A stretch of DNA of 64,000 nt from Elusimicrobiota bacterium (GCA_016212825.1 JACRDS010000013.1:31677-95676); one strand, 5' to 3'; positions 18,110-53,113 are shown, numbered from the stretch's first letter. A program made the numbers and translations. The notes: a model not told the origin generated them from the letters alone.

Positions 18110-18110
18110 C

Positions 18111-22090: not shown

Positions 22091-22098
22091 GAGGCCGC

Positions 22099-23590: not shown

Positions 23591-23673
23591 CCGCATCAGG
23601 TGAAGGCGCAAGCCTTCGACCTGTGTAGCTTGGGGAATCGGCCCCAGGGCATCCACGATCCCGCCGGAACGGG

Positions 23674-24186
23674 ATGAGACCACGGGAGAAGACCAAACTC
23701 GTTTCTCTCTTCCGTCCCGGCCGCAGGAAGGCCGGACCGGAAGCGGGAGACGCGCCGAGGGGTCAAATGGATACGAAAGAGCCTGTATGCGTACAAGCAG
23801 CGAATCGGTCCGCGGCCTGCGCGGCCAGCCGTCCGGGCCCGGCCGTGGAGGAGGTGATGCGCCGCCGGACCTCCAGGGAGCGATGGGTCATCCTGATGAG
23901 GCATGTCCGCGGCCAGTACCCGCACGGGATCATGTACGGGGTGAACGTCGCCGACGGCATCATCGTCTCCTGCGACAAGCTGCAGCCTTGCTTGTCCTTG
24001 GAGCCCTCCCCGGCGGCGGGCGACGGAGCCGGGAAGGCCTTCGACGCCAATTGGGAGAAGCTGGAAGCCCTGTGCGGACGCATGGGAACGGGGCGTCTGA
24101 GCGAACTGAGGTTCAACGAGGGAAGGCCCGTATCCGTGCTGCCCCCGGCGCGGGGCTGGAGGTTCGGACGCAGAACTGATAACTGA
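23674..24186 (+). CDS. hypothetical protein
   Basis: Track ORF downstream of the second sigma-54 promoter. Alternative start at 23767 (MDTKE). No domain recognised. Confidence 0.45.
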   Translation: MRPREKTKLVSLFRPGRRKAGPEAGDAPRGQMDTKEPVCVQAANRSAACAASRPGPAVEEVMRRRTSRERWVILMRHVRGQYPHGIMYGVNVADGIIVSCDKLQPCLSLEPSPAAGDGAGKAFDANWEKLEALCGRMGTGRLSELRFNEGRPVSVLPPARGWRFGRRTDN

Positions 24187-25052: not shown

Positions 25053-25166
25053 CGGGCTCAAGCGAATATTGTGTGCAGGGTGACTTTGCGGGCAGCCCGG
25101 TCGCCAGTCGGTGAAAACTCGGGGAGCAAATCCCCACCTGCCCGACAGAACGCAGGAGGTGGAAGA

Positions 25167-25709
25167 ATGGACCAGTCGGCGACGCGGACGTGCGGAAAGC
25201 CGGACATCGGGGATGGGGCGGGAAGGAAGCCGCGCTTCCTCAAGGTGCGGTTCTACCTGCCGCACCAGGACATGGTCAGCCTGGAGGAGGAGCGCCTCAG
25301 GCTCATCAAGGAGGGCCACGACGTGAGCCTCAGCAGGCTCATCTCCGAGGCCATCCGGCATCACATCCAGACCGGCCGGCGCCAAGCGGCGGGCGGCGCG
25401 GCCCTGGCCGCGCTGCTGGCCTTCGGCCTGTTGGCGCCGGGCCTGGCCGGGGCCCAGTCCTACGGCTCGCAGATCACGCAGGCAGGCCAGGCGCTCTACT
25501 CCTGGATCCGCAGCATCGGGGCCGTCATCCTGGCCATCGGCATCTCGGGGGCGGGTTTCCAGATGGCGGTGGCGCATGACCGGGAGGCCATGAAGAAGTT
25601 CTTCTACGTCATCCTGGGTGGGCTCATCGTGTTCCTGGCCCCTTCGTTCGTCTCCCTCATCCAGGGCGTGGCCGGTTCCGCGCAGTCGCTCAACATGTCG
25701 GGGCAGTGA
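25167..25709 (+). CDS. VirB2/TrbC-type pilin with N-terminal ribbon-helix-helix-like extension
   Basis: AGGAGG SD precedes the ATG at 25167. Residues ~25-68 fit an RHH pattern (KVRFYLP...VSLSRLISEAIRHHI). These are followed by the signal sequence ALAALLAFGLLAPGLAGA and two hydrophobic helices separated by AHDREAMKK, the VirB2 topology. Confidence 0.6.
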   Translation: MDQSATRTCGKPDIGDGAGRKPRFLKVRFYLPHQDMVSLEEERLRLIKEGHDVSLSRLISEAIRHHIQTGRRQAAGGAALAALLAFGLLAPGLAGAQSYGSQITQAGQALYSWIRSIGAVILAIGISGAGFQMAVAHDREAMKKFFYVILGGLIVFLAPSFVSLIQGVAGSAQSLNMSGQ

Positions 25710-25978
25710 GCGGGATGAACACCTACAAGGCGCTCGACTACCACCTCAAGACCTTCGGCTTCTGGCCTGGGGACTTGATCGGCACGTTCCTGGGCTTCTG
25801 CGTGGTCCACTGGGTCTTCAACAGCTTCCTGCTGGACCTGGTGGTAGTCGGGCCCTTGCTTTTCGCGGCGTTCAAGACGAGGAAGCGCGCTCCCGCCTAT
25901 GTCGGGTCGCTGTGGCGCTTCGCCACCACGGCCCGGCGCTTCAGCGTGGGGCTGGGCAGGGAGGGCTGCGGCCGATGA
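25706..25978 (+). CDS. VirB3/TrbD-like small membrane protein
   Basis: About 90 aa with a two-helix hydrophobic core. Its stop overlaps the VirB4 start (ATGA). The call rests on position and size. Confidence 0.55.
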   Translation: MSGMNTYKALDYHLKTFGFWPGDLIGTFLGFCVVHWVFNSFLLDLVVVGPLLFAAFKTRKRAPAYVGSLWRFATTARRFSVGLGREGCGR

Positions 25979-28425
25979 TTCTGCCTACCTTGACGCGCGA
26001 CTTGTTCCAGACCCGGCGCGAGCCCTGCGCGCACAACCTGCTCAACCTGTGGGCTCTGGAGGACGGAGCCTTGGTCGGCGTGGACCTGCAATACACCAAG
26101 CTCTTCAGGCTCACCTGTCCGGACGCCCTCTTCGCAAGCGAAGCGGAGCTGGAGCAGCACGCGGTGGCCCTCGGCCGCCTCCTTGACGGCCTGCCCGAGA
26201 ACTGCACGGCCCAGCTCATCGTCAGGGTGCGCTGGGACGCGGGCAGCAAGATCGAGGAGTACGCCTCCTACGAGCGGCCGGAGGGGGACATGCTGCGCTT
26301 CATCGTGGGCGCGAGGGTGGATTTCCTGCGGAAACTGCCGTTCAAGCGAGTGGAGCACTTCCTGGCCCTGAGCACCTATGCGGAGAAGACGGACCTCATG
26401 AAGCTGGGCCTGCGGCCCCTGGCGCTCAAGGTCCCGGACCTGGGCCGCGAGCTGGCCGGCCTGCATGAGCGCAGGATAGAGGGGCTCAGGAAAGTCTGCG
26501 CCACCGCCTCGGCCGCATTGCGCGACGCCAAGGTCGCGGCTTTGCCGCTCTCCGAGGCTGAGTCTTTGGCCTTCCTCTACGGCCGCCTCAATCCGGCCTT
26601 GGCCCAGCACACCCCGCCTCCGCCCCTGCGCAAGTCCGCGACCTTGCGCAGCCAGCTGGCGCTCAACGCCTGGGACTGCGGCTTCGACACCTTGACCGTG
26701 GACGGCCACCACCACCGGGCGGTCAACCTGGTGGTCAGGCCGGGCGGGCTCGACGGCCGGGCCATGGCCGCCTTGGCGGACCAGGTGCCGGGAGACTTCG
26801 ACCTGGTCATCGCCGTGCACAGCCTCTCGCAGGAGAAGGCGCAGCGCGAGGTGGAGTGGAACTCCACCTCGGCCGCGGTCATTGGCGGGCTGAGCATGTT
26901 CACACGCTACCACGAGGCCGACCTCAAGTGCGAGGACGCGGACGCCCTGCTGGCCCATGTGAAGTCCTCCTGCCAGAAGCTCTACCTCATGAGCTGCCAC
27001 CTGGTCCTGCGCGACGTGGACTTGAAGGCCCTGACGCGCAGCACGGACCAGGCCATCCAGGCCCTGCGCCGGCTCGACGACGCGGTGGGGGTGGTGGACG
27101 ACATGAACCACCTGCCGCTCTTCCTGGCGTCCTTGCCCGGCCATTCCCATCTCAATCCCCGCGCGCACCTGGTCCACACCGAGGCCGCGGCGCGCTTCCT
27201 GACCATGAGTTCGGGCTGGGACGGCTGTCCATGGCCGCAGTTCATGACCCCGGGAGACGACGGCAAGGCCTTGGGCATAGACCTCTTCTCCCCGGAGCTG
27301 ACCGCCAAGCACTCCCTCATCCTGGGGGTGTCCGGTGAGGGTAAGAGCGTGCTGACCAACTCGCTGCTGACCAGCTTCTTCAGCGCGGACGAGAGCCACA
27401 ACGTCATCGTCATAGACGACGGCGGCTCCTACAGGCGTCTGTGCGGCCTCTTGGGCGGGCAGTACCTTGAGCCCACCTTGGACGGCACCTACGCCTTCAA
27501 CCCCTTCCTGGCCCGCGAGTACGCCTTCGACGAAGCCGGCCGGCTCGACGCGGACTTCCTCTCCTTCATGACCTTGCTGGTCCAGCTCATGGTGCACAAG
27601 GCCGACCTGAGCAACAACCAGAAGTCCATCATCCAAAGGTGCGTGCTGGCGGCATACGAGAGCGGCAAGAGCCGGACCCCCATTCTGGCCGACCTGCGCG
27701 AAGCCTTCAGGGCCTTCCGGGGCGACGAGGAGGATGAGGCCCTGGCCCGGAGCTTCTACAAGGATCTGGACCTCTGGACCGAGGGCACCTACGGCCGGCT
27801 GCTCAACCGGCCGGGGACCTTCGACGCGGCCTCGCGCTTCATCGTCTTCGACCTCAACAAGATGACGCAGGAGGACCTCAAGCCCGTGCTCCTGCTCATT
27901 ATCAAGAGCGTCATCCATCCCAAGCTGGCGGACAAGAGCCTGCGCAAGGTGATCGCCTTGGACGAGGTGTGGAAGTTCCTGCGCGAGAAGGCCGGGGCCG
28001 ACCTGGCGGCCGAGTGGTACAAGACCGGCCGGCGCTTCAACGCCGCGGTCATGGTGGTCACCCAGTCGGCAGAGGACCTGCTGGCCAGCAAGGCGGCGGA
28101 GGCCATCACTCATAACTCCACGGTGAAGTGGATCCTCAACCTGGGCGGGGGCTACGAGAAGCTGGCGGACCTCAAGCTCTCGGCCGAAGAGATCGAGGCG
28201 GTCAAAAGCCTGGGCAAGAACGTGGACCGCTCGCGCTTCCGCAAGGTGTTCCTGCGCTTCGGCGAGCGCAAGGCCGTGATCCGCAACCAGCTCTCACCCA
28301 CCGAGTACTGGCTCTACACCACGGACCCCAACGACGTGAACCGGGAGGCCGCCCTGCGCGAGGCCCACCCGGAGTGGGGCGCGGTGGAGCTCCTGCGCGC
28401 TCTGGCCGGAGGGGCCCGTGCTTAG
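25975..28425 (+). CDS. virB4: type IV secretion ATPase VirB4/TrbE family
   Basis: 816 aa. Walker A GVSGEGKS, Walker B VIALDEVWKF, VVTQS motif, conserved N-terminal VirB4 architecture. Confidence 0.9.
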   Translation: MILPTLTRDLFQTRREPCAHNLLNLWALEDGALVGVDLQYTKLFRLTCPDALFASEAELEQHAVALGRLLDGLPENCTAQLIVRVRWDAGSKIEEYASYERPEGDMLRFIVGARVDFLRKLPFKRVEHFLALSTYAEKTDLMKLGLRPLALKVPDLGRELAGLHERRIEGLRKVCATASAALRDAKVAALPLSEAESLAFLYGRLNPALAQHTPPPPLRKSATLRSQLALNAWDCGFDTLTVDGHHHRAVNLVVRPGGLDGRAMAALADQVPGDFDLVIAVHSLSQEKAQREVEWNSTSAAVIGGLSMFTRYHEADLKCEDADALLAHVKSSCQKLYLMSCHLVLRDVDLKALTRSTDQAIQALRRLDDAVGVVDDMNHLPLFLASLPGHSHLNPRAHLVHTEAAARFLTMSSGWDGCPWPQFMTPGDDGKALGIDLFSPELTAKHSLILGVSGEGKSVLTNSLLTSFFSADESHNVIVIDDGGSYRRLCGLLGGQYLEPTLDGTYAFNPFLAREYAFDEAGRLDADFLSFMTLLVQLMVHKADLSNNQKSIIQRCVLAAYESGKSRTPILADLREAFRAFRGDEEDEALARSFYKDLDLWTEGTYGRLLNRPGTFDAASRFIVFDLNKMTQEDLKPVLLLIIKSVIHPKLADKSLRKVIALDEVWKFLREKAGADLAAEWYKTGRRFNAAVMVVTQSAEDLLASKAAEAITHNSTVKWILNLGGGYEKLADLKLSAEEIEAVKSLGKNVDRSRFRKVFLRFGERKAVIRNQLSPTEYWLYTTDPNDVNREAALREAHPEWGAVELLRALAGGARA

Positions 28426-29272
28426 GCCGCTCGCCCTGGTCCTGTTCCTGGCCGCGCCGGCCCGGCCCGCGGTCATGATCGTCAACGACCCGGTCCAGAC
28501 CTCGATCCAGAAGGTGAACCTGTCGGTTCAGACCCTGCACACCAAGTTCATGAAGCTGCAGATGGTGCAGGACGCCATCACGCTCAAGAACAACTACCTG
28601 GCGGCCAAGCGCTTCTACGACAATATCGAGGCCAAGAGCAGGCACCGCGGCGGGCTCATGGGCTACTACGCGGACTATGCCAAGGAGCAGTTCAAGGCCA
28701 TGGCCGAGCAGGAGTGGGCGCGGCTCTACGCGGAGGGCACCAGCCAGACCGGGCCTGCGGCTGTCGAGGACCTCATCAACGGGGTCTTCGGCGCGGTCAA
28801 CCAGAAGGTGGGAGGGGTCATAGACTCGGCCGAGGGCGCGGTGGCCGAGGGCATGGCGGTCCCGGACCGGGGTTACGCCAACGTGCGCCACTCCCTTTTC
28901 TCCCAGCAGAAGCGCCAGACCGAGGCCGTGGACAAGATGGTCGCGTCTTCGGAGAAAGGCGCCGCAGCCACCAACAAGCAAATACAGGACCTGGTCCGGC
29001 GCGGCTCCGCGGCACAGATAGACGACAAGGCCAGCGACAGCATCCAGATGCAGGCGGCCATACTGCAGGTCCAGCTCCTCTCCCAGATACGCCAGCTCCT
29101 CAACCTCAACGCCCAAATCAACAATTTCCAGGCCAAGCAGGGCATGGCCGAGGAGGCGGTGGGCATGGCCACTGCCAACGACCTGGCCGAGTACCGGGCC
29201 CAGGCGGCCAAGAGCAGGCGCTCGGCCGCGGCGTCGCGGAGCCGGCTCGCAACAGTCCTCGGGAGGCCATAA
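28418..29272 (+). CDS. secreted coiled-coil protein, TrbJ/VirB5-like
   Basis: Signal peptide, then IVNDPVQTSIQKVNLSVQTL..MKLQMVQD, which resembles the TrbJ N-terminus. Position after VirB4. Confidence 0.5.
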   Translation: MLRPLALVLFLAAPARPAVMIVNDPVQTSIQKVNLSVQTLHTKFMKLQMVQDAITLKNNYLAAKRFYDNIEAKSRHRGGLMGYYADYAKEQFKAMAEQEWARLYAEGTSQTGPAAVEDLINGVFGAVNQKVGGVIDSAEGAVAEGMAVPDRGYANVRHSLFSQQKRQTEAVDKMVASSEKGAAATNKQIQDLVRRGSAAQIDDKASDSIQMQAAILQVQLLSQIRQLLNLNAQINNFQAKQGMAEEAVGMATANDLAEYRAQAAKSRRSAAASRSRLATVLGRP

Positions 29273-29273
29273 C

Positions 29274-30266
29274 ATGGATGTCTCATTCCTCGGCAAGGCG
29301 GCCACGCCCTACAACGACCTGGCCATCCCTGAGGTGATGGGCTCGGTCATGCTCATCACTCGGAGCATCGGTCTGGCGCTTTTCAGCCTGTTCTTCTTCG
29401 CCGAGGCCCTGCGCCTGCAGGCGGCCGGAGTTGAGAACGCCTGGGACAGGCAGGCGGCCAGGCCCAGGTGGCTGAGCTTCCTGTGGCGCTCGGCGGTGGT
29501 CTTTCTCTCTTCGGTTTTCCTCTACAAGTGGGCGTTCCTGCAGATGGTGTCCCTGTGCGACAACATCGCCATGGCCATCTCCGACGAGGAGAGCTGGATG
29601 CGGCTCCTGAGCTCCCTGTCCCAGGGCGGGGCCACCAGCGTCAGCCTGCTCAACGTGACCGTGCCCACGCTCCTGAGCGCAGCCGCCATGTCCCTGCTGC
29701 AGATCGTGGAGGACGTGCTCATCATGATCCGCTTCGTGATGCTCTCGCTGCTCTTCATCGTGGGGCCCATCGTCTGGTCCTTCGGCATCTCGGAGCTGGG
29801 CCTGGGCGCGGTCAAGGGCTGGTTCAAGAACACCTGGCAGGTCTCTTTCTGGCTGGTGGCCTTCTCGGCCATCAAGGCATCCATCGTTCCCCTGGGCATA
29901 AGCGCCTTCCAGGACGGGGCGGCCAGCGGGGCCGTGCTGGCCATGGTCTACGCGGTCGTCATCGTCCTGTGCATCCTGCTCGTCCCGGCCATTACGGCCG
30001 CGCTGTTCTCCCAGGCCAACATTGACGCGGTAGGCGGCGCTGTGACCAGCTCCATCGTCTCCTACACGGCCCTGCGCAGCACGGTGGCCGCGGGCGGGGC
30101 GGCGCACCGGGGCATCGTCGGCGCCGCAGCTTTCGGCTCGGCAGTCAAGAGCGCCTACCAGGCGGATGGGGTCAAGGGTGTGCTGAAGACCTTGGTCTCG
30201 TCCAAACCGGCAGCCTTGGGCTGGAGCGCTTCCGCGGGCGGCTCCAGCAAGGAGCGGACCAGGTAG
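29274..30266 (+). CDS. polytopic membrane protein, VirB6/TrbL-like
   Basis: 330 aa with multiple TM helices in the gene-order position of VirB6/TrbL. Confidence 0.55.
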   Translation: MDVSFLGKAATPYNDLAIPEVMGSVMLITRSIGLALFSLFFFAEALRLQAAGVENAWDRQAARPRWLSFLWRSAVVFLSSVFLYKWAFLQMVSLCDNIAMAISDEESWMRLLSSLSQGGATSVSLLNVTVPTLLSAAAMSLLQIVEDVLIMIRFVMLSLLFIVGPIVWSFGISELGLGAVKGWFKNTWQVSFWLVAFSAIKASIVPLGISAFQDGAASGAVLAMVYAVVIVLCILLVPAITAALFSQANIDAVGGAVTSSIVSYTALRSTVAAGGAAHRGIVGAAAFGSAVKSAYQADGVKGVLKTLVSSKPAALGWSASAGGSSKERTR

Positions 30267-30268: not shown

Positions 30269-30940
30269 ATGTTCTCCGCTATCAAGGCCAGGCTGCAGGC
30301 AGCCGCGGCCGCCAAGAGGGAGCGCGGGGAGCCTCGGTTCTTCGAGGTGTTCGGCGACGCGGTCTCCGAGACCTTGTTCCTGCGCAACCTGGCCATCGTG
30401 CTGGGAGGCGCCAGCCTGGTGCTGTGCATGGCCCTCCTGCGCCTCTGCGTCCGGCCGCCCCTGGTCATCCGGGTAAGCGACCTGGGCGAGCCGATGCCAA
30501 TCACGGATGCGCGCCGCGCCGCCTATGTGACCGCCCCCGAGGTGCGCAACTTCGCGGAGCACTTCACGCGCAACCTGCTGGCCTGGGACCTCTACACCTT
30601 CGTGGACGACATAGACCGCGCCCTGGCCATGATGGCCCCGGAGGCCGCGGCCAAGATGAAGAGCCGCCTCGACGGGCTCAACACGACCTCCGCCATCCGG
30701 GAGAACTCGCTGCGCACCACCGTGGCCATCACCGAGATCGAGGTTGAGAAGGACACCCCGGATGTGGTGCGCGTCAAGGTCCGGGGAACGCGGACCGCGG
30801 CGAGCTACGAGAAAAAGGATTACCACAAGGAGACCTCGTTCGAGGATACGCTGGTGGCGAACAAGGTCGCCCGGACGGCCAAGACGCCATGGGGTTTGCT
30901 GGTCGTGGAGTGGACGGAAGCCATATACGAGGAGCGATAG
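30269..30940 (+). CDS. bitopic protein, VirB8/TrbF-like
   Basis: A single N-terminal TM helix followed by ~150 aa with an NTF2-like alpha+beta pattern. The gene order is consistent. Confidence 0.5.
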   Translation: MFSAIKARLQAAAAAKRERGEPRFFEVFGDAVSETLFLRNLAIVLGGASLVLCMALLRLCVRPPLVIRVSDLGEPMPITDARRAAYVTAPEVRNFAEHFTRNLLAWDLYTFVDDIDRALAMMAPEAAAKMKSRLDGLNTTSAIRENSLRTTVAITEIEVEKDTPDVVRVKVRGTRTAASYEKKDYHKETSFEDTLVANKVARTAKTPWGLLVVEWTEAIYEER

Positions 30941-32347
30941 ATGACCAAGAGAATCATATCGTCGATAGGGGCGGCCCTGCTGGCCGCGACGTTGGCGACC
31001 GCCTCCTACGCGGTCCAGTTGCAGACCATGTTGCAGGGCTACCTTACGGACTCGAGCGGCACGCCCTATACCGGTCCCCAGGCCGCTGAGTTCAAAGTCT
31101 ACCAAGGCGGCAGTCCGGCCGCCGCAGGCTCCGGAATCTTGGTCTACGATGAGACCGCCACCGTCCTTCCCGCGGCCAGCGGAGTCTTCAACTACATGCT
31201 GGGCAGCGGGACGCCGGTCGCGCCCGTGCTCCTGGTGGGCAGCCAGGCCATCCCCAACGCGCTGTCCACCGCCACCTTCGACACCGCTCAATCGGTCTAT
31301 GTCGAGATCGCCGTGGGTGGGACGGTCCTGCTGCCGAGACTCCAGCTCGTGGGGATGCCCTTCGCGGCCGTGGCGGGGGTGGCGGAGAGCCTCAAGCCGG
31401 GCGTCCGCTTGCCCGCGGAGAACCTCCTGCCAGGCCCGCTGACCGTGACTTCCGGGACCTTCAGCGCGGCTGGAGCCGAGCAGTACAGCCTGAGGACCTC
31501 GTCGGGCATCGAGGTCGGCGGCGGCGGCGTCAAGGCGGCTTTCTTCGCCGGCTCGTTCCACGGCGACGGCGCGGGGCTCAGCGGCGTCAGCGCGTCGTCG
31601 GTCCCGGCGGGCAGCGTGACGCCCGGCATACTCGGCGCCGGAGTGCTCCTGCCCGCAGGGAGCATCCTTCCCGGTCCCGTGGCAGTGACCTCCGGCACAT
31701 TCTCGGCGAGCGGCCCCACGCAGTTCAGCATCCAGACCTCATCCGGCATCAGCGTGGGCGGAGGGGGAGGCGTCAGCGCGGCATTCTTCAGCGGCGCATT
31801 TTACGGCAACGGCGCTGGGCTGACCGGCGTCGGCGGAGTCGCGCCCGTCGGCTCCATCACGGCCTTCGCGGGCCAGAGCGAGCCTTCCGGGTGGGTGGAA
31901 TGCGACGGCCGGTCCCTTCCCCAGAGCGGCTCTGCTGCCGCGTCCTGGGGCTCGTTCAACACGGCTGCGCTTTTCGCCGTCATCGGCACGGTCTGGGGCT
32001 CGCAGGGCGCCGGGCAGTTCAACATCCCCGACCTGCGCGGTATCTTCCCGCGCGGCTGGAACCACGGCAAGTCCTCCGGCCTGTACGATCCTGACGCGGG
32101 CTCACGCGTAAACCAGTACTCGAGCGGCGCCACGGGAGACGCCATCGGCTCCTATCAGACGGATGACTTCAGGTCGCATACACACTCGGGGTTTGCAGCC
32201 AGCGGTTTGCAGGCTCAAAATGGCGGACCCTGGGCGGGTTCCGGCGGGGTCGGAGGCTCGACCGGAGCCCCGAATTCCGGCATGGCGCACGGCAACGAGA
32301 CCCGCGCCAAGAACGCCTCGGTCATGTACATCCTGAGGGTCCAGTGA
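30941..32347 (+). CDS. secreted protein with internal tandem repeats and C-terminal phage tail-collar domain
   Basis: Signal peptide. Two ~55-aa repeats (LPGP.(T/A)VTSGTFSA.G...GGGG(V)..AFF.G.F.G(D/N)GAGL(S/T)GV). The C-terminus ITAFAGQSEPSGWVECDGRSL...ALFAVIGTVWG...FNIPDLRGIFPRG matches the tail-collar (Collar/MdpB) pattern. Confidence 0.75.
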   Translation: MTKRIISSIGAALLAATLATASYAVQLQTMLQGYLTDSSGTPYTGPQAAEFKVYQGGSPAAAGSGILVYDETATVLPAASGVFNYMLGSGTPVAPVLLVGSQAIPNALSTATFDTAQSVYVEIAVGGTVLLPRLQLVGMPFAAVAGVAESLKPGVRLPAENLLPGPLTVTSGTFSAAGAEQYSLRTSSGIEVGGGGVKAAFFAGSFHGDGAGLSGVSASSVPAGSVTPGILGAGVLLPAGSILPGPVAVTSGTFSASGPTQFSIQTSSGISVGGGGGVSAAFFSGAFYGNGAGLTGVGGVAPVGSITAFAGQSEPSGWVECDGRSLPQSGSAAASWGSFNTAALFAVIGTVWGSQGAGQFNIPDLRGIFPRGWNHGKSSGLYDPDAGSRVNQYSSGATGDAIGSYQTDDFRSHTHSGFAASGLQAQNGGPWAGSGGVGGSTGAPNSGMAHGNETRAKNASVMYILRVQ

Positions 32348-33192
32348 GCCTGATGTTCCTGCGGTCCTTCCTGCTCGGCCTGGGCATGCTGGTCTTGAAG
32401 GGCGCTGCCAATGCCAACATGTGTGCCCTTCCCCAGTTGGGCGCGGCCGGCGCTGGGACGCTCTCCGGCAGTGCCAAGTCGGCGGTGGTCACGGCTGGCC
32501 TGGCCGCGGGTGTGGCGGTCGCGCCGGGCATGGTGCTCTCCATCGGCCTGCAGTCTGTGTCGCAGGGGTCCTTCGCCTGCTTTTTGTCCACGGATGCGCC
32601 TCTCGCCGTGGCAGCCTTGCCCGGCACGTATTCGGTCCAACGCCTGGTGCCCAGCCCAGGCCGCACCATGACCCTGCAATGGAGCGAGGCTGCCGGCCTC
32701 CTGCCCGTCACCTACGAGGTATTCCTGGGGGAGTCTCCCTCCGCTCTGGCCAGCGTCGCCCGGGGCCTGGCAGCGCCGAGCCACACCCTCTCCAGCCTGG
32801 AGTTCATGCGTCCCTACTACTGGCGCGTCATGGCCTCGGACCAGTTCGGGCGGTACTCACAGAGCGGGATCTACTCCTTCTCCATAGCCCCGGCCCAGGA
32901 TCGCATGATAGCGGCGCCCAACCCGTTCCACCCGGGCAAAGTCGGCATCACCTTCATGTGGCTCATGCCCGGTCCGGGCTGGGCCGAGCTCGAGGTGTTC
33001 GCCTTGCCTGAGGCGCGTCGGGTCTTCAGGACCCGGCTGGAAGGCCTGCAGGACGGAGTCAACACCTTTCTCTACGACGGCCGGGATAGCGACGGTCGGC
33101 TGCTCTCCAACGGAATCTACACAGTCCGAATGAGGATGAAGGGAGCCAATGGCAACAAGACAGAGCTTCTCAAGATTATCGGCGTGCGTTAG
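32344..33192 (+). CDS. secreted FN3-like protein with FlgD-Ig/T9SS-type C-terminal domain
   Basis: Signal peptide, an FN3-like block (TLQWSE..PVTYEVFLGES...YYWRVMA), and a C-terminal APNPFHPG...LEVFAL...NGIYTVRM...LKIIGVR CTD pattern. Confidence 0.6.
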   Translation: MSLMFLRSFLLGLGMLVLKGAANANMCALPQLGAAGAGTLSGSAKSAVVTAGLAAGVAVAPGMVLSIGLQSVSQGSFACFLSTDAPLAVAALPGTYSVQRLVPSPGRTMTLQWSEAAGLLPVTYEVFLGESPSALASVARGLAAPSHTLSSLEFMRPYYWRVMASDQFGRYSQSGIYSFSIAPAQDRMIAAPNPFHPGKVGITFMWLMPGPGWAELEVFALPEARRVFRTRLEGLQDGVNTFLYDGRDSDGRLLSNGIYTVRMRMKGANGNKTELLKIIGVR

Positions 33193-35038
33193 CCTGCTCC
33201 TGGCAGGCCAGGCCGCGGCTTCAGGGTTTCTGGCTACAGGACCTGGAGCGCGCGCCGCAGCGCTGGGCGGGGCCTTCACGGGCCTGGCTGACGACGCCTC
33301 GGCCGTGTACTACAACCCGGCCGGCCTGGCGGGCCAGCGCGGGGCCCTGATGCTGGAGCATGTGCCTGTCAACCAAGCCGGAACCGGCCTGGCTTTCGAC
33401 GACGGCAGGCTGGACTTCGCGGGTATCCATTATCCCAGCCGCATCGGGACCTTCGGCTTCGCCGCTTTACAGTTCGCCGCAGGCCGAATCGAGGGCCGCC
33501 AGACCCTCTCGGAGGCCGCCGATCGCATCCAAGCGACGCAAACCGCGCTCTTCCTCCCTTACGCGGCCGCCTTGGGCTCCCTGTCCTTGGGCGTGACCGG
33601 CAAATCCATCATGTACTCGCTGGGCTCCTATCGGGGGACGGGCTACGGCGCGGACCTCGGGGCCAAGGCCGCCCTGTTCCAGGGCGATTCCGCGCTGGGC
33701 CGGGAGACGCGTCTGTTCGCCGGCGTGACGGTGCGCAACGCCGTTGCCCCGGCCATGCGGCTCTACCAGGACCCGGTCGCCCTGGAGCGGACCTTTGCCG
33801 CGGGCCTGGGAGCCTCGGCCCTGGTGCGGGAGAGCTATGATGCGGCCCAGAACCGGGTGTCCTACGACCGCATCGCCGCGGACCTCGATTTCGTGCGCGG
33901 GGACCAGGACACCGTGCTGAGCCCTGCCGGCGGACTTGAATACTCCTACCTGGACCGCTACGCGCTTCGCGGAGGCTTCAGCAGGCTTGGCAACATCACC
34001 ATCGGCTTCGGGCTGGGCGGACCTGACTCGGCCTTCCGCTTCGACTACGCGGCGGATGTGGGGGCGCTGGCTCCCCAGCACCGGTTCACGGTCTCCTGGG
34101 TGTTCACTCCTTCCAAGGCCAAGGTGGAGAGCGGCGTGCGCTTCTCAGCCTTCAGGCGCGCCAAGCTCGACCAGGAGCGTCTCAAGGACCGGTTCGTCAG
34201 GGAGGGACGCGCCGCGGCCGCGGCTGGTGACTACGAGCTGGCCTGGGCCGACTTCCAGAAAGCTAGGGTGCTGGACCCGGAGGACAAGATCGCGGCCGAC
34301 CTGGCGGAGTCGAGCCGGGAGGGGAGCAGGCTGGCCGGGGTCAAGGCGCGCCTCGACGAAGCGCGCCGCCAGCGGGCCGCGGGAAACGATGCAAAGGCAG
34401 TCGCCGCGGCCCTGGCCGCCCTGGTCTTCGACCCGGCGAGCCCGGAGGCCGCGGACTACGCCGCTCAACTGCGCAACGAGCTCATAAGCTCGGGCACCGC
34501 GGCGCAGTTCGAGAGCACGCGGCGCGCCATGATCGAGGAAGGGGAGCTGGCTTTCCAGGCGGCCCGCGCGGACGGCAATGTCGCGGCCATGCGCCGCGCC
34601 TTGGAGCGCGTCAAAGCCCTGGAGCCGGACGCGGACGCGGTCTGGAAGCCGCTTGAGGCGAGCCTGGACGAGGCCCGGCAGCAACTCCTGGCAAGCAGCC
34701 TGGACGATGCCCGGCGGGCCTTTGCGGCGAAGGACGCCGTAGTTGTGGCGCGCTCCGTGCGCCGCATCAGACGCCTGGATCCGGACCAGTCTGAACTGCC
34801 CGGCCTGGAGGCCAAGCTGAGGAAGGCCAGCCGCAGAGGGATGCTCTCCTTCTACGACGCGCACTATGTGCGCCAGCTTTACGATACTGCCGCGGCCGAC
34901 TATGTGCTGGGCAACTATGCCACTTCGGCCCAGACCTTGGCACTGCTGTTGCGCTGCGACGCGGCCCACCGAGACGCCAATGCCCTCGTGGACAGGCTGC
35001 GGGAAGAGGGGAGGATCGCGCAGGAGCAGGAACCCTGA
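33149..35038 (+). CDS. PorV/TraF_2-like beta-barrel fused to C-terminal TPR-like helical region
   Basis: Signal peptide, then GPGARAAALGGAFTGLADDASAVYYNPAGL, the same signature as the 18111 protein. The C-terminal ~300 aa are helical repeats. Overlaps the previous gene by 44 nt. Confidence 0.6.
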   Translation: MATRQSFSRLSACVSLLLAGQAAASGFLATGPGARAAALGGAFTGLADDASAVYYNPAGLAGQRGALMLEHVPVNQAGTGLAFDDGRLDFAGIHYPSRIGTFGFAALQFAAGRIEGRQTLSEAADRIQATQTALFLPYAAALGSLSLGVTGKSIMYSLGSYRGTGYGADLGAKAALFQGDSALGRETRLFAGVTVRNAVAPAMRLYQDPVALERTFAAGLGASALVRESYDAAQNRVSYDRIAADLDFVRGDQDTVLSPAGGLEYSYLDRYALRGGFSRLGNITIGFGLGGPDSAFRFDYAADVGALAPQHRFTVSWVFTPSKAKVESGVRFSAFRRAKLDQERLKDRFVREGRAAAAAGDYELAWADFQKARVLDPEDKIAADLAESSREGSRLAGVKARLDEARRQRAAGNDAKAVAAALAALVFDPASPEAADYAAQLRNELISSGTAAQFESTRRAMIEEGELAFQAARADGNVAAMRRALERVKALEPDADAVWKPLEASLDEARQQLLASSLDDARRAFAAKDAVVVARSVRRIRRLDPDQSELPGLEAKLRKASRRGMLSFYDAHYVRQLYDTAAADYVLGNYATSAQTLALLLRCDAAHRDANALVDRLREEGRIAQEQEP

Positions 35039-35817
35039 TGGCGCGGGTAAGCCCTGTCGTGACCTTCCTCGTGGTCGCCGCGCTCTGCGGCCTGGCGGTC
35101 TTCGCGGGCCCGCACGAGCCTTCGGATCCGCCCGAGCCCATCTCAGGCGTGCTCTTTTCGGTCAGGAAGGCCACCTGCGCGCCGGCCGGGGCCTCACCGG
35201 CCAAGGCGGCCGCCCCTGCCCTTCCGGCCAGCCCGGCAAGGGCCAAAGCCCTTCCCAGGAAAGCGGCAAGGACTGCCGAGCCTGTCCGGGCCATGGCCGA
35301 GGCCGCGCCTGCGGCCCTGGTGGATCTGTCCTCAGCCCCAGCCGCGCCGGCCGCTGCTCCCGTGGCACTGGCCGTCGCGCCTGCGGCTGCGACGCCAATG
35401 CCGGCGGCGAAGCCGACTTCCAAGCCCGAGCCTGCCGGCCCTGTCGCTTTCGGGGACCTGGACGAGGCCCTGCGCCAGAGCCCCACGACCCAGGCCCTGA
35501 ACTTGCGGGTCAAGAAGGGCGGGATGGTGTTCCGCATCACGCACGTGGGCCGTGCGCGGGGGCGCGCCGCGGCGCGCTTCGCGCTGGCCAACGAGGAAGC
35601 GGCGGATTTCTTCCTGTCCGTGGTCAGCGTGTCGGCCGGCGGCGCGCCCGTCCTGGCTGATACCGCCGGGCCCTACGTGTGCCGAGCCGGGGAGGAAATC
35701 TACGGCGTGGTCCACCTCGCGCCCGAGGCAGCCTCCGGCAAGCGCCTCTCAGTGACCTTGGTGCAGAGCGGCGGGGAGCGTCGTCGCTTCCAACTCGCCT
35801 TGGAGTACCCGTTTTGA
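35038..35817 (+). CDS. secreted Pro/Ala-rich protein (possible VirB9-position component)
   Basis: Signal/anchor helix, long P/A-rich linker, ~100-aa beta-rich C-terminal domain. TGATG overlap with the upstream gene. No motif-level assignment. Confidence 0.45.
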   Translation: MARVSPVVTFLVVAALCGLAVFAGPHEPSDPPEPISGVLFSVRKATCAPAGASPAKAAAPALPASPARAKALPRKAARTAEPVRAMAEAAPAALVDLSSAPAAPAAAPVALAVAPAAATPMPAAKPTSKPEPAGPVAFGDLDEALRQSPTTQALNLRVKKGGMVFRITHVGRARGRAAARFALANEEAADFFLSVVSVSAGGAPVLADTAGPYVCRAGEEIYGVVHLAPEAASGKRLSVTLVQSGGERRRFQLALEYPF

Positions 35818-36206
35818 GGCGCCATCATCCTGCCGTGCGCCGGGACGGCCCCTTGGAGGGGCTTCTGCGCTGCGGCGCGAGCCCTGAGCCGGCCCGGATG
35901 CCGGAGCAGGCCGAGTTCTGGCCCGCGGCTTCCGGCCCCGCAGGGGTGTACCGGCAGGAGAAACTGCTCCTGCGCGGCGACTACCTTGACGGCCTGGAGA
36001 GGGTGAGGCGGGACTTCGGCTTGAGAAAGGCTGAGTTCAGGAAGTCCTTGACCATTGGGGAGCTGGTGGACGCGGCAGTGGGCTTCATGCTCCGCCAGGT
36101 GGACTTCAGCACCCTGGAAAGCGCGGAGGACCTGGAGCGCCACGTTGCCAGGCAGGCCCTGCGCGGGACGCAGGCGAGCCTGGGCAGGTCGTGGCAGGAG
36201 GGATGA
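35814..36206 (+). CDS. hypothetical protein
   Basis: TTG at 35814 overlaps the previous stop, with an alternative ATG at 35899. Its stop overlaps the next ATG. No domain recognised. Confidence 0.35.
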   Translation: MRRHHPAVRRDGPLEGLLRCGASPEPARMPEQAEFWPAASGPAGVYRQEKLLLRGDYLDGLERVRRDFGLRKAEFRKSLTIGELVDAAVGFMLRQVDFSTLESAEDLERHVARQALRGTQASLGRSWQEG

Positions 36207-36889
36207 TGATGAGATACGCGGCGCTGTTCCTGCTTCTTGCACGGCCTGGAGCGGCCGAGGACCTGGTGGACCCCACGGCGCTCTTCAGCCAGGCGGCGCA
36301 GGCGGCCAAGCCTGCCGCGGCCGAGCGGCCGCCGGCCTGCCCGGGCGCGGACGACTTCTTCCTGCCCACGGGCTTCACCTTCCCGGCCCTGCTTCCCGAC
36401 GCCATCTTCAGCTACAACACCGCGGCCCCGGTCAACGCCGTGCTGGAAGACGACGTGAAGTCCCGCGGCCGCGTGATCCTGCCCAGGCACACGCGCCTCA
36501 TCGGCGGCGTCAACGCCCTGCACACGCTGGACCGGGTCAACATCGCCTGGCGCCTGGCGGTACTGCCCGAGGGGTGCGAGTTCGAGTTCTCGGGCATCGC
36601 CCTCTCGGCGGACGACGGCTCGGGAGGAGTGAAAGGCAAGGTGGAGAAGCATGAGGATTCGGTCGCGGCGCAGGTGGCCCTTAAGTCCATCCTCAACGGC
36701 GCACAGCAGGCCGCGGCCATAGCAGTCCCGGTCGAAGGCGCGCTGGCCTCCGGGTTCTCCGGCGAGGCCAACCTGATGCTCGACCAGAACATAGCCAAGG
36801 TCAAGAGCCTGGAGTCCATCTACATCCGCGAAAGGACGCAGATCCGCGTCTTGGTCATGAGGAGGTTCGCCCGAGATGGCGGAAAATGA
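36203..36889 (+). CDS. VirB10/TrbI-like protein (short form)
   Basis: Signal-like N-terminus. The core VLEDDVKSRGRVILPRHTRLIGG...RVNIAWRLAVLPEG...DDGSGGVKGKVEKH follows the TrbI/VirB10 C-terminal domain pattern. It lacks the usual long Pro-rich N-terminal region. Confidence 0.6.
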   Translation: MMMRYAALFLLLARPGAAEDLVDPTALFSQAAQAAKPAAAERPPACPGADDFFLPTGFTFPALLPDAIFSYNTAAPVNAVLEDDVKSRGRVILPRHTRLIGGVNALHTLDRVNIAWRLAVLPEGCEFEFSGIALSADDGSGGVKGKVEKHEDSVAAQVALKSILNGAQQAAAIAVPVEGALASGFSGEANLMLDQNIAKVKSLESIYIRERTQIRVLVMRRFARDGGK

Positions 36890-38765
36890 ATCCTCGCCCT
36901 GCGGCTGGGAGTTCGTGCTCATGGTCGCTCTGATAGGCATGGCCTTGCAGAAGAACGCGCCGGCCATGGAGCGCCGGCTCGTGGCCTGGGAGGTGGCGCC
37001 TGTCACCGCGGCCGGGGTCGCGGCCCGCGCGGCCTATCGCCGGCTGGGGCAAGGGGCGACCCTCGGCAAGAAGGCATGCCTCAACGTCGCGGTCAACCTC
37101 TTTGCGAAGTCGGCCAATCCGCTTCGTCCTGGCGTGGGCTGGTTCGGGTTGTTGTCGCTCGGAGTCTTTCTCTGCCCCTTGGCGGCGCGCCGCATGGGCT
37201 CGTTGCGTTATTGGAACACCGAGTGGCTCGCAGCCGCGGTGCTGGTCACGGGGGCAGGCGCGTGTTTCGGGTTGGCCATGCCCGCTGCCTGGCCCTGGCC
37301 GGTGCTCTGGGTGGGCGGCGTGTGGGCCTTCGCCAACACAGGGGCCGCCCTCTTCTGCCTATGCCTGGCAATCTGGTCCTTCCATAAGGGTTCGAAGCGT
37401 CTCCACCATGGTCCGGCATTCAAACTGCCCATGATGTCGAAGCCATGCTCCGGCTTCACCGTGGGCCGCGTGGACCCGAAGATCATGCCCGGCCACTCCC
37501 GGTGGCTGGCCTCAGGTGGAGGCGACATCCAACTCCCTTTCAACCGCCTTTCCTGCGGCCTGACCGTGCTGGGAGAGAAGGGCGCCGGGAAGTCTCGGCT
37601 GCTTTTCGCCATACACGATGCCATCAGGAGGCAGCATCCGAACGTCCCCATCCTCATCCACGACCCCAAGAGCGAATGGTACCGGACCTACTACGACCCC
37701 AAGGCGGACCTGTTCTTCGCCCCGCACTTCAAGGGCACCGCGGCCTGGAGCCTGTGGCGGGATTTCAGGGAGGTGCCGGAGCTGCGCCACGAACTGCTTT
37801 CGACCTGCGTCTACGCCCACCAGGACCGGGATGATACCTTCTGGATGGACCAGGCCGTGGACCTCCTGCACCAGGTCTCGGGTTTCAAGACTCTCTCCAA
37901 AGCTGCGGATTATCTGGGAGACATCCCGCACCAGCACCCGGACGACGAGTTCCTCTTGTCGGTCTTCGGCACCGCAAAGCTCGGCTTCCTGGATCTGGCC
38001 AAGACCGAGCTGATGTCCGCCATCTCGGGGGCCCGGCCGCTGTCCATTGACGATTTCCTCCGGCAGAAGGGCCGCATCATCCTGCTCAACAACCCCTCCT
38101 GCGCATCCGAACAGAAGGGGGCTTTCAGCCTGTTTTTGTCCGCATTCCTGCTGAGGGCGCTTTCGCTGCCGGACGTGCCGGAGGGCACCCTGCGCGCTGT
38201 CGCCATCATCGACGAGGCGCTGACCTTCAACCTGCCCCCGGACGTGGAGAGGCGCATCTCGACGCTGTGCCGGTCCAAGGGCGTCTGCGTCGTGGCCGGC
38301 GCCCAGCGCCTGCCGGACCGCCAGCGCAACGAACGCGGCGAATGGCGCACCGCGGAGCACACCTTCGCCATGAAATGCGTGAACCAGGACACGCAACGCG
38401 AGCTGTCCAGGAAGGCCGGCAGCCTGCTGTTCCGACGCATGGCCCAGAGCACGACCACTTCGGCCTCGGAGCGCGCGGCCGGGCAGTCTCATACCAGGAG
38501 CGAGCAGGACCTCAGCCAGGAGGCCATCCCGCCGGAGCACTTCGGAAGGCTGTCGCCCCGCGAGTTCGTCTTGTTCCACGACCAGGGCATCGTGACCGGC
38601 AGGACCGTGGAGGTGGGGCGCGAGCAGCGCGCCGTCGCCCTGCCGCCGTACGAGCTGCGCGAGGACGTGCGCCGGATATCTATGGGGCTGATCGCCGACA
38701 TGCCTGCGCAGAAGGAGGACGAAAAAGAAGACGGAAAGGAGGATGGAGAAGATGAGCGTGATTGA
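36876..38765 (+). CDS. virD4: type IV coupling protein (VirD4/TraG/TraD family)
   Basis: N-terminal TM helices, Walker A GEKGAGKS, Walker B AIIDEALTF, acidic KEDEKEDGKEDGEDE tail. Confidence 0.85.
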   Translation: MAENESSPCGWEFVLMVALIGMALQKNAPAMERRLVAWEVAPVTAAGVAARAAYRRLGQGATLGKKACLNVAVNLFAKSANPLRPGVGWFGLLSLGVFLCPLAARRMGSLRYWNTEWLAAAVLVTGAGACFGLAMPAAWPWPVLWVGGVWAFANTGAALFCLCLAIWSFHKGSKRLHHGPAFKLPMMSKPCSGFTVGRVDPKIMPGHSRWLASGGGDIQLPFNRLSCGLTVLGEKGAGKSRLLFAIHDAIRRQHPNVPILIHDPKSEWYRTYYDPKADLFFAPHFKGTAAWSLWRDFREVPELRHELLSTCVYAHQDRDDTFWMDQAVDLLHQVSGFKTLSKAADYLGDIPHQHPDDEFLLSVFGTAKLGFLDLAKTELMSAISGARPLSIDDFLRQKGRIILLNNPSCASEQKGAFSLFLSAFLLRALSLPDVPEGTLRAVAIIDEALTFNLPPDVERRISTLCRSKGVCVVAGAQRLPDRQRNERGEWRTAEHTFAMKCVNQDTQRELSRKAGSLLFRRMAQSTTTSASERAAGQSHTRSEQDLSQEAIPPEHFGRLSPREFVLFHDQGIVTGRTVEVGREQRAVALPPYELREDVRRISMGLIADMPAQKEDEKEDGKEDGEDERD

Positions 38766-39350: not shown

Positions 39351-40493
39351 ATGGGACTGGTGAAGAAGGGCGAGAACTGGTTTATAGACTACCGCGCCAA
39401 CGGGCGGCGCATCCGGGAGAAGGTCGGCCCGAGCAGGAAGCTGGCCGAATCGGCGCTGGCCAAGCGGAGGCTGGAACTCGCGGAGAACAGGTTCCTGGAC
39501 GTCCGCAAGGCCAGCCGGGAGACCTTCCAGAGCTTCGCCGAGAAGTACCTGGAGTGGGTCCAGGGGCGCATCCGCTCGATCGCCAACGAGCGCATCTACG
39601 TGCGGCGGCTCAACGCGACCTTCGGCGGCACCTGCCTCTCGGATATAGACGTGGCCCGCGTCGAGAAGTTCATGGCGCAGAGGCTCAAGGAGCCGCGCCA
39701 GCATCCATATCGCGGGAAATCCGCATGGAAGCTCGACGCGGTCGAGCGCGAGGCGAAGATTAAGGCGTGGTACGCGGGGAACGGAAAGACGATCTCAAGG
39801 GCGCACGTGAATCGCGAGGTCTCCTGCCTCCGGCGCATCCTTAATAAGGCGGCGGACTGGAAACTGCTGCCGGCGCGTCCGCTCGGGGGGCTCAGGCTGT
39901 TCGATGAGCGAGAGTCGATACGCAAGCGCTATCTGAAGCCCGAGGAGATCCGGACCCTGCTTGCCGCCTGCGGCCCGGGCCTCAGGCAGGTCGTGACCTT
40001 CGCCCTCTACACCGGCCGCAGGTACGGCGAGATATCCGGAATGCGGTGGCAGGACGTGGACGTCGAGAACGGATACGTGTACTTCCCGAGGACCAAGAAG
40101 AAGGAGCCGGACCAGGTGGCTCTGCCGCCGCGGGCGCGTGAGGTCCTGGCGGAGTTGCGCCGCGATGCGAACGGCGATTTCGTCTTTCATAAGAAAGACG
40201 GCGGGCAGCTGCGGGTCGTGCGGTCGGGCTTCAAGAGGGCCCTGCGCAGGGCGGGAATCGCGAATTTCAGGTTCCATGATTTGCGGCATACGGCCATATC
40301 TTATATGATGATGAACGGCATCGATTTGAAGACCATCGCCGAGCTCGTGGGCCATGCGACGGCTCAAATGGTGGACAAGCGCTACGGCCATCTTTCGCCG
40401 GACCACAAGCGCGCCGCCGCGGAGGTTTACGGTTCGGCGATGGACAGGTTGTGCGGGCATGGGCAAGTCCCCTCTCAAGCCGGGGCGGCCTGA
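39351..40493 (+). CDS. int: tyrosine recombinase / integrase
   Basis: N-terminal SAM-like domain. Catalytic region with R...HDLRHTAISYMMMNG...GHAT...Y (RFHDLRH, RYGHL). Confidence 0.9.
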   Translation: MGLVKKGENWFIDYRANGRRIREKVGPSRKLAESALAKRRLELAENRFLDVRKASRETFQSFAEKYLEWVQGRIRSIANERIYVRRLNATFGGTCLSDIDVARVEKFMAQRLKEPRQHPYRGKSAWKLDAVEREAKIKAWYAGNGKTISRAHVNREVSCLRRILNKAADWKLLPARPLGGLRLFDERESIRKRYLKPEEIRTLLAACGPGLRQVVTFALYTGRRYGEISGMRWQDVDVENGYVYFPRTKKKEPDQVALPPRAREVLAELRRDANGDFVFHKKDGGQLRVVRSGFKRALRRAGIANFRFHDLRHTAISYMMMNGIDLKTIAELVGHATAQMVDKRYGHLSPDHKRAAAEVYGSAMDRLCGHGQVPSQAGAA

Positions 40494-40616: not shown

Positions 40617-40653
40617 GCCGACGTAGCTCAGCGGTAGAGCAACCGCCTTGTAA
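40617..40653 (+). repeat. attR core (37 bp, 5' half of the intact tRNA-Thr)
   Basis: Identical to 5590-5626. Confidence 0.85.
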
Positions 40654-40688
40654 GCGGTAGGTCGCCGGTTCGATCCCGGCCGTCGGCT
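40617..40688 (+). tRNA. tRNA-Thr (anticodon UGU)
   Basis: Hand-folded cloverleaf: acceptor GCCGACG/CGUCGGC, D arm GCUC-AGCGGUA-GAGC, anticodon stem ACCGC/GCGGU with loop CUUGUAA, T arm GCCGG-UUCGAUC-CCGGC. CCA is not encoded. Confidence 0.9.
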
Positions 40689-52892: not shown

Positions 52893-52921
52893 TTGACAGA
52901 ACAAAATCCTCCTGTTAAGCT
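52893..52921 (+). promoter_or_regulatory. sigma-70-type promoter TTGACA-N17-TAAGCT
   Basis: Perfect -35 with 17-nt spacing in an AT-rich patch. Lies ~60 nt upstream of the riboswitch-like element. Confidence 0.5.
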
Positions 52922-53085: not shown

Positions 53086-53113
53086 ATAACCGCGGAGGCG
53101 GCCGCAGCGCTAT

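Follow-up and report, generated by a model that had tools for sequence, protein, structure and literature searches.

We analyzed a 64,000-nt stretch of DNA from an Elusimicrobiota bacterium (GCA_016212825.1 JACRDS010000013.1:31677-95676; the whole stretch is referred to here as the window, and positions are counted from its first letter). An integrative and conjugative element (ICE) in this window encodes a divergent conjugative type IV secretion system (T4SS) with a conserved accessory cassette made of type IX secretion system (T9SS)-type and phage-type parts. The cassette comprises three plus-strand genes, which encode a secreted trimeric-fibre (tail-collar) protein (30941-32347), an FN3 protein with a FlgD-Ig/T9SS-like C-terminal domain (CTD; 32344-33192), and a PorV/PorQ-family outer-membrane barrel that continues into a tetratricopeptide repeat (TPR)-like solenoid (barrel-TPR; 33149-35038). 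We propose, giving the idea about an even chance, that this trio is an outer-membrane-anchored mating adhesin of the T4SS and not a replacement for its channel. The analysis is based on profile scans (Pfam and NCBIfam, and Rfam for RNA elements), AlphaFold2 models with Foldseek searches, and a comparison of related loci; it provides folds, family relationships, the borders of the ICE, and a strict linkage of the three genes with one another and with one T4SS family in two gene orders.

Linkage of the cassette genes to a T4SS family

The genomic context was compared across 16 distinct loci, the window and 15 others (one of which, L003, was also sampled as L005 and L010). The genes for the fibre, the FN3-CTD protein and the barrel-TPR protein are kept together in all of them and never separate; in every locus, the gene immediately before that of the barrel is an FN3-CTD orthologue. 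The fibre gene, which had been left out of the finding reported in an initial annotation of this DNA, thus belongs with the other two. The initial annotation took absence of the barrel-TPR gene from homologous T4SS operons as evidence that would count against it, and we find the gene in every related operon retrieved.

Two gene orders occur. In the first, genes for VirB2, VirB3, VirB4, an additional protein, VirB6 and VirB8 are followed by the trio, then by genes for a 259-aa protein, VirB10 and the type IV coupling protein (10 loci: the window, the P0002 locus, L001, L002, L003, L007, L009, L097, L098, and L008, a short contig on which just the FN3-CTD and barrel-TPR genes are present, ordered as in the others). 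In the second, the coupling protein gene and a small gene precede the trio, which is followed by genes for VirB2, VirB3, VirB4, the additional protein, VirB6, VirB8, the 259-aa protein and VirB10 (five loci: L086-L089 and L099). The trio is therefore a movable cassette, found either in the interval between the VirB8 and 259-aa genes or upstream of VirB2. In the remaining locus (L011), the trio stands alone between an AcrB gene and an insertion sequence, without T4SS genes. We rejected this locus as proof that the trio is independent of the T4SS, since the other relatives of its barrel that we examined are in T4SS operons; it is an exception and possibly a remnant, which the insertion sequence immediately downstream would fit.

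The VirB4 proteins of related loci are 33-74% identical to that of the window. Between lineages, the parts of the system have diverged to similar degrees (identities of 33% for VirB4, 45-50% for VirB10, 32-37% for the VirB8-like protein, 37-38% for the FN3-CTD protein and 26-32% for barrel-TPR), and this similarity argues for long co-inheritance of the trio with this T4SS family.

Proteins of the cassette

The 629-aa barrel-TPR protein is identical to HY926_01510, annotated as a hypothetical protein of an Elusimicrobia metagenome-assembled genome. Its AlphaFold2 model (pLDDT 82.7) has 14 main strands followed by 13 helices, corresponding to a 14-strand outer-membrane barrel (aa ~25-320) and a C-terminal TPR-like solenoid (aa 333-619). 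The barrel is matched by NF033709 over aa 25-319 and nearly the whole profile (positions 4-326 of 326; E 2.6e-24), and it falls below the cut-offs of the equivalog models for PorV or PorQ (NF033710/NF033711), with 23.6 bits for PorV (cut-off 250), 37.2 for PorQ (cut-off 220) and 39 for PorV2 (cut-off 325). In Foldseek searches, the top matches of the barrel model were chains of 345-367 residues in SprA-PorV translocon entries (8gl6_F, E 4.5e-10; 6h3i_F, E 3e-8; target TM-scores 0.63-0.65), ranked before FadL and TodX; from their length, the matched chains are presumably PorV. Weaker matches included FhaC, CdiB, TamA and BamA-type transporters (TM-scores of at most 0.29), as well as BcsC and PelB.

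The initial annotation had claimed that the N-terminal half of this protein carries the same barrel signature as a second barrel of the window, encoded at 18111-19034, and that it is fused to a TPR-like tail. The model bears out the tail, and the two barrels are indeed related (30% identity, E 5e-21), both having the motif G.GARA..(L/M)GGA(F/Y)T.LA(D/N)D..A...NPAGL. Because an even-stranded barrel has both ends in the periplasm, the TPR tail is predicted to be periplasmic. Full-length relatives of barrel-TPR fall into two sets, one of about 35 that are 50-82% identical to it and one of 16 with 26-32% identity. The TPR fusion is specific to T4SS-linked barrels, most other PorV-like matches being without it.

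The gene upstream encodes a 282-aa protein with a signal peptide, an FN3-like middle (fn3 was matched by two of nine orthologues) and the CTD at its extreme C-terminus, where the motif APNPF...NG(V/I)Y...K is invariant in nine orthologues. This agrees with its earlier description as an FN3-like protein ending in a FlgD-Ig/T9SS-type CTD. TIGR04183 was not reported for the protein in the NCBIfam scan. From its domains and position, we propose that it acts as an adaptor between fibre and barrel.

The fibre protein consists of a MAT_N-like N-terminal region of ~150 aa (NF053851 Bdello_MAT_N, E 1.7e-6), internal repeats and a C-terminal phage tail-collar domain (PF07484 Collar, 56.8 bits). Seven of nine fibre orthologues match MAT_N (NF053851) at E<0.01, with a best E of 1.8e-9. 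In all loci, conservation is confined to the first 150-190 residues, and the length (230-1172 aa) and content of the remainder differ from locus to locus. Only the window, L001 and the P0002 locus have the Collar domain. Even among close relatives the tips differ while the base is kept. A conserved base with swappable tips is the pattern expected of a receptor-binding fibre. According to PMC10769870, an as yet unidentified surface element is the presumed binding partner of the N-terminal domain of MAT fibres. In two loci, a gene for a TylF-like O-methyltransferase lies between the fibre and FN3-CTD genes (L001, 5179-5877; L003, 8244-8945); it does not occur in the window, and its product may modify the fibre or a glycan.

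The outer-membrane core

The tail-collar gene and the TrbI/VirB10 gene (36191-36889, plus strand) flank the genes starting at 32344, 33149 and 35038, whose starts and stops overlap or abut. The initial annotation had recognized these three genes (32344-33192, 33149-35038 and 35038-35817), all of which we find, and had placed nothing else before VirB10; the 374-nt spacer that follows them (35818-36190) is in fact filled by a small lineage-specific open reading frame (ORF) for a helical protein of ~100 aa (about 35898-36206, plus strand). This ORF has no homologue in the other fetched loci, where the 259-aa and VirB10 genes are mostly ~10 nt apart, and the closest relative (barrel 74% identical) has a 153-aa gene in its place.

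The third gene (35038-35817, plus strand) was earlier described as encoding a Pro/Ala-rich secreted protein. The Pro/Ala-rich part is there, as a disordered linker of ~110 aa, and to it we add an N-terminal transmembrane helix that makes the 259-aa protein bitopic and a well-predicted C-terminal beta-sandwich (aa 138-259; the AlphaFold2 model was built on six sequences only). The C-terminal domain defines a tiny family: a set of 1.84 billion proteins contains 33 representatives, which share a similar architecture. In L086-L088 and L099, the gene for a homologue has the VirB8-like and TrbI genes as its immediate neighbors, and almost all other loci that extend far enough have it directly upstream of TrbI; one small ORF separates it from TrbI in the window and the P0002 locus. 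Since the 259-aa gene stays between VirB8 and VirB10 when the trio moves, its product alone owns the VirB9 slot.

VirB9 models (PF03524 and NCBIfam) gave no match at E<=1 to the 259-aa protein and 24 family members. DUF4138/TraN was matched by two of the 25 family members (best E 0.0075), and one weakly matches TIGR03780 TraN. We aligned the domain by hhalign with TraN, represented by eight sequences (a Sunxiuqinia locus and seven Bacteroidota plasmids), and obtained a score of 33.3 (P 7.4e-4) over 101 columns in the C-terminal half of TraN, compared with at most 20.2 for the controls (reversed and 30 column shuffles). Guglielmini et al. (2014; PMC4027160) report that TraN of the MPF_B class is homologous to VirB9. 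The 259-aa protein is thus probably, though not provenly, a divergent VirB9/TraN-like subunit. Sequence searches of its family against the PDB returned no meaningful matches. The Foldseek matches of the model, all of them generic Ig-like sandwiches such as adaptin ear and MSP domains, were taken as uninformative and not as homology.

The VirB10/TrbI-like protein matches PF03743 well above threshold (56.8 bits, cut-off 35; profile positions 2-184 of 188). It is short (226-257 aa), has no Pro-rich region, and begins with what resembles a cleavable signal peptide and no more, so the envelope-spanning architecture is atypical. Judged from sequence alone, an Ala-rich segment follows the G..G..H motif where the antenna would lie. 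A profile of the orthologues weakly matches CagY and ComB10 up to that motif, whereas phmmer searches of VirB10 against the PDB found nothing. One TrbI orthologue (L099) has a weak Transposon_TraM match, which points towards MPF_B. Because the 259-aa domain resembles TraN and TrbI/VirB10 is present, the outer-membrane core looks conventional though divergent.

Proposed role of the cassette

In the mechanism that we propose, fibre, FN3-CTD and barrel-TPR proteins would all be Sec-exported and the 14-strand PorV-like barrel would enter the outer membrane. There it would hold the uncleaved FlgD-Ig/T9SS-like CTD of the FN3 protein, much as PorV, PorQ and PorP/SprF-type barrels do with PorU, PorZ, PG1035 and SprB. 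The N-terminal part of the FN3 protein would grip the invariant MAT_N-like base of the trimeric fibre, whose variable tip (tail-collar in the window) would recognize recipient cells, leading to formation or stabilization of mating pairs. The periplasmic TPR solenoid would tie the adhesin to the T4SS core or the cell wall, and the channel would come from the TraN/DUF4138-like 259-aa protein at the VirB9 position together with TrbI as VirB10. We infer the topology, the CTD-barrel binding, the fibre attachment, the adhesin role and the TPR contacts in this scheme.

Several results weigh against it. The window proteins score below the curated cut-offs of the families to which we relate them: the fibre reaches 27.9 bits with NF053851 (cut-off 60), the barrel 86.4 bits with NF033709 (cut-off 90) and the CTD 26.9 bits with PF13860 FlgD_ig (cut-off 27; E 4.9e-6). 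The last two profiles had been suggested by the initial annotation, together with PF13729 TraF_2. The 18111 barrel passes NF033709 clearly and the barrel-TPR protein falls just short of it; five of nine FN3-CTD orthologues match PF13860 at E<0.01; and PF13729 matched neither barrel at E<=0.1, the TraF_2 domain being present in one distant barrel+TPR relative (P0119). The link of the 259-aa protein to TraN is weak (hhalign probability 26%), and no VirB9-type chain was among the top 50 Foldseek matches of its model. The ICE of the window is without a recognizable relaxase, which makes the activity of this copy uncertain. The scheme leaves the route of the fibre and FN3-CTD proteins across the outer membrane unaccounted for, and our literature search found no report of a T9SS in Elusimicrobia. 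Finally, the barrel-TPR gene itself served to retrieve every related locus except two, which makes its universal presence in part a matter of ascertainment. The independent retrievals are L097, found via the 259-aa protein, and L005, found via VirB4; a VirB4-anchored scan of GTDB gave two Elusimicrobia loci and one Bacteroidota locus only, and one of viral contigs gave nothing.

A different role had been suggested by the initial annotation, in which barrel-TPR and its CTD partner occupy the VirB7/VirB9 slot and build an outer-membrane complex in place of the VirB7/VirB9 core. On such a view, the two would be structural core subunits, a VirB7/pilotin-like anchor and outer ring replacing the VirB7/VirB9 layer, and the TPR region would dock on VirB10 and the 259-aa protein. 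The recognition of CTD and barrel as T9SS-type parts in a transfer operon was correct. A core role, however, appears unlikely to us. It keeps some plausibility because VirB10 is atypical, with its short length and signal-peptide-like N-terminus only, and because neither a VirB7-like lipoprotein nor an ORF scoring clearly as VirB9 was found by Pfam or NCBIfam; the initial annotation had named a clear VirB9 or VirB7 score as evidence against its view. A periplasmic TPR arm would also suit protein docking, and the barrel-TPR gene is in every related T4SS operon examined. Gene order points the other way: when the trio changes place it does so as a unit, and the slot between VirB8 and VirB10 stays with the 259-aa gene. 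The 259-aa domain shows similarity of the TraN/VirB9 type, and TrbI scores above threshold. A ring would have no need of the constant link to a fibre with variable tips, and the L011 trio has no T4SS genes nearby. The gene order lends no support to an outer-membrane core rebuilt from T9SS parts.

Cargo-barrel pairs outside the T4SS

The ICE contains a second pair of CTD and barrel genes. In this pair, the gene for a 1436-aa NHL-repeat protein whose CTD is Por_Secre_tail-like (13799-18109, plus strand) is followed by that for the 307-aa PorV/PorQ-family barrel already mentioned (18111-19034, plus strand), which scores 183.9 bits with NF033709, above the cut-off. Searching all fetched loci with a CTD profile made from the FN3-CTD orthologues, we found at least 13 metagenome contigs, unrelated in other respects (L013-L016, L018-L022, L024, L025, L029 and L056), in which a giant ORF with a FlgD-Ig-like CTD (~1100-1800 aa, a few shortened by the contig end) has a gene for a PorV-like barrel directly behind it. 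The 13799/18111 pair is laid out in this way too, except that its CTD is recognized by Por_Secre_tail and not by the FN3-CTD-derived profile. From these loci and the window pair, cognate cargo-barrel pairing looks like a general design that is widespread outside the T4SS context.

This distribution bears on another explanation, that the trio is surface-display cargo unrelated to DNA transfer (serving, for example, in attachment to a substrate or host, in surface or entry exclusion, or as a phage decoy) and hitch-hikes in the operon. Such a function can be entertained because many CTD-cargo/PorV-like pairs exist without a T4SS, one apparent cargo pair (13799-19034) is carried by this very ICE, and the L011 trio stands by itself. 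We nevertheless hold it to be improbable. The genes of the trio are part of the operon, their start and stop codons overlapping, and the trio has persisted across three T4SS sublineages and two gene orders while diverging about as much as the core genes, which is unusual for a hitch-hiker. The TPR fusion, moreover, is peculiar to T4SS-linked barrels, and the insertion sequence beside the L011 trio fits a remnant. The most speculative explanation, that barrel-TPR is a minimal, two-partner-like exporter which moves the CTD protein and fibre without a SprA-type translocon and was recruited by the T4SS, draws on the spread of cognate pairs in metagenomes of lineages without a demonstrated T9SS, on the lack of literature on T9SS in Elusimicrobia and on the weaker Foldseek matches to FhaC, CdiB, TamA and BamA-type transporters, but we consider it very unlikely because a 14-strand barrel of FadL/PorV type, with its N-terminal plug, offers a narrow lumen, PorV is a shuttle and not a pore, and the Omp85/TpsB similarity is weak.

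Beyond the mating adhesin itself, we tentatively raise a broader possibility, one that we regard as doubtful but worth stating: CTD/PorV-like pairs may form a self-sufficient anchoring, and perhaps export, system in lineages outside Bacteroidota without a canonical T9SS, and one TPR-fused pair may have been recruited by the Elusimicrobia T4SS to hold a MAT-type fibre. If true, this would be the first T4SS with a T9SS-derived adhesin dock, and it would show by what kind of surface element MAT-type fibres are held, a point not yet settled for Bdellovibrio.

Comparison with known systems

The closest parallels to the barrel and CTD genes are the pairs of the Bacteroidota T9SS (PorV-PorU, PorQ-PorZ, PorP-PorE-PG1035 and SprF-SprB), in which the gene for a barrel of the PorV/PorQ/PorP kind likewise lies beside that for a protein with an Ig-like CTD. 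PorP-PorE-PG1035 and SprF-SprB complexes anchor uncleaved CTD proteins at the cell surface (PMC9143113), and cognate PorP/SprF shuttles are encoded beside their substrates (PMC12618676). The PorP-PorE-PG1035 system offers a further likeness, as its barrel works with a periplasmic TPR-containing partner, PorE (PMC9143113; PMC12618676; PMC12773672). The Elusimicrobia cassette differs from the Bacteroidota pairs in its host, in the fusion of the TPR region to the C-terminus of the barrel, in its partner protein, a small FN3 adaptor that goes with a phage-like fibre, in the location of its genes in a conjugation operon, and in barrel and CTD scores just under curated cut-offs. The exopolysaccharide export proteins BcsC and PelB also combine an outer-membrane barrel and a periplasmic TPR solenoid in one polypeptide, the solenoid connecting to inner components; theirs, however, is an N-terminal TPR region and a 16-strand export pore, whereas here the TPR region is C-terminal and the barrel of PorV/FadL type.

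The fibre resembles the mosaic adhesive trimer (MAT) fibres of Bdellovibrio in its conserved N-terminal domain, trimeric body and swappable tips that include phage-derived domains (PMC10769870), and differs from them in organism, context and its sub-threshold MAT_N score.

Among conjugation systems, the mating-pair stabilization adhesins (F-plasmid TraN and the R64 PilV tip adhesins) are surface proteins from transfer operons with variable receptor-binding parts that select or hold recipients. The proposed product of the cassette would be similar as a surface-exposed, recipient-selecting protein from a transfer operon, but there is no kinship in sequence or fold, and here a phage-like trimer would sit on a separate barrel/CTD anchor. 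The core is comparable with the T4SS of Bacteroidota conjugative transposons (MPF_B, CTnDOT TraG-TraN), with which it shares VirB4, VirB6/TraJ-like, VirB8/TraK-like and TrbI/TraM-like proteins and, probably, the TraN/DUF4138-like domain of the 259-aa protein. It departs from MPF_B in that its VirB4 is only 27% identical to a Bacteroidota TraG and has its best, sub-cut-off match to F-type TraC, and in that only the C-terminal half of TraN is matched. To our knowledge, no PorV-like barrel, CTD protein or fibre has been reported from MPF_B operons, a statement that comes without a systematic test.

The initial annotation knew of no description of this architecture, and our literature search likewise found none of PorV-like/CTD parts in T4SS operons, nor of a T4SS or T9SS in Elusimicrobia. 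The window documents an undescribed T4SS family from a poorly studied phylum, with a core related to, yet distinct from, the Bacteroidota and F-type classes. If the adhesin model is true, a conjugation system borrowed the cargo-anchoring logic of the T9SS for a phage-like, tip-swappable fibre, a new solution to recipient recognition. The system raises the questions of whether CTD binding by PorV-like barrels extends beyond the T9SS, how MAT-type fibres are anchored, and what the minimal outer-membrane core of a divergent T4SS is. The barrel-TPR and 259-aa genes can serve as metagenome markers of this ICE family.

The integrative and conjugative element and other operon genes

The ICE is inserted in a gene for tRNA-Thr(TGT) (40617-40688, plus strand). 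The first 37 bases of this gene (40617-40653) form attR, and an exact 37-bp copy of this 5' half at 5590-5626 (plus strand) is attL, the left end of the element. No second match to the repeat was found in any of 100 shuffles. The presence of this repeat at both ends defines an ICE of ~35 kb, which has a VirB4, a coupling protein, an integrase and flanking direct repeats. The integrase, of the tyrosine type (39351-40493, plus strand; PF00589, 101 bits), adjoins the tRNA-Thr gene. Both CTD/barrel pairs (the 32344-35038 region and 13799-19034) are inside the repeat-bounded element, as the initial annotation had held.

We identified no relaxase domain in the scanned ORFs of the window, which include part of those of the ICE, and a tblastn search of the window with the TrwC relaxases of L005 and L088 gave no match. 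The relatives L003/L005 and L088 do encode TrwC-type relaxases beside their T4SS genes. The copy in the window may be non-autonomous, or it may rely on an unrecognized relaxase, for example the product of an unassigned 412-aa ORF (11639-12877).

The plus strand from ~25.0 to 40.5 kb is a single tightly packed operon. Ahead of the cassette, it encodes a VirB2/TrbC pilin (25071-25709), a VirB3-like protein (25706-25978), a VirB4/TraC-like ATPase (about 25975-28425; the F-type TraC model is the best match at 219.8 bits, far under its cut-off), a secreted helical protein of 284 aa (28418-29272), a polytopic VirB6-like protein of 330 aa (29274-30266; an orthologue in L086 matches TrbL) and a bitopic VirB8-like protein of 223 aa (30269-30940; an orthologue in L098 matches VirB8). 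One VirB6-like orthologue (L088) has a weak CtnDOT_TraJ match, which points towards MPF_B. Downstream of VirB10 lies the gene for the VirD4/TraD-like type IV coupling protein (36876-38765, plus strand; PF10412, 50.4 bits; PF12696, 26.3 bits).

In both gene orders, the coupling protein gene is always followed by a gene for a conserved coiled-coil protein of ~70 aa (L001, 12005-12220; L086, 7918-8118; and equivalents). A tblastn search with the L001 copy did not find an equivalent in the window. We rejected a reading of the 259-aa protein and the ~70-aa gene product as VirB7-like lipoproteins, their Cys being not conserved or outside a lipobox; the ~70-aa protein, moreover, looks like a cytoplasmic coiled coil. 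Genes for stand-alone response-regulator receivers recur in or beside these T4SS operons (L002, 1-2125; L086, 3400-3906 and 20971-21402; L001, 12758-13123), and in L002 one of them is located between VirB3 and VirB4. This placement hints that a phosphorelay controls transfer.

The left part of the ICE (6000-14000) has a much lower G+C content (0.53-0.60, compared with 0.65-0.71) and contains cargo-like genes for a major facilitator superfamily (MFS) transporter, a polyprenyl synthetase, RadC and a tandem rhodanese. The lower G+C content and these genes suggest a mosaic origin of this part.

Two riboswitch aptamers were identified on the plus strand. A c-di-GMP-I aptamer (52986-53081; RF01051, 46.8 bits, gathering threshold 35) lies outside the ICE, at the start of an ORF without a Pfam match (52893-54158). 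The other, a 2'-dG-II purine riboswitch aptamer (23618-23688; RF03165, 74.9 bits, gathering threshold 60), is inside the ICE ~1.4 kb upstream of the pilin gene, where it is flanked by genes for a radical-SAM/SPASM peptide maturase (21715-23496) and an uncharacterized 170-aa protein (23674-24186).

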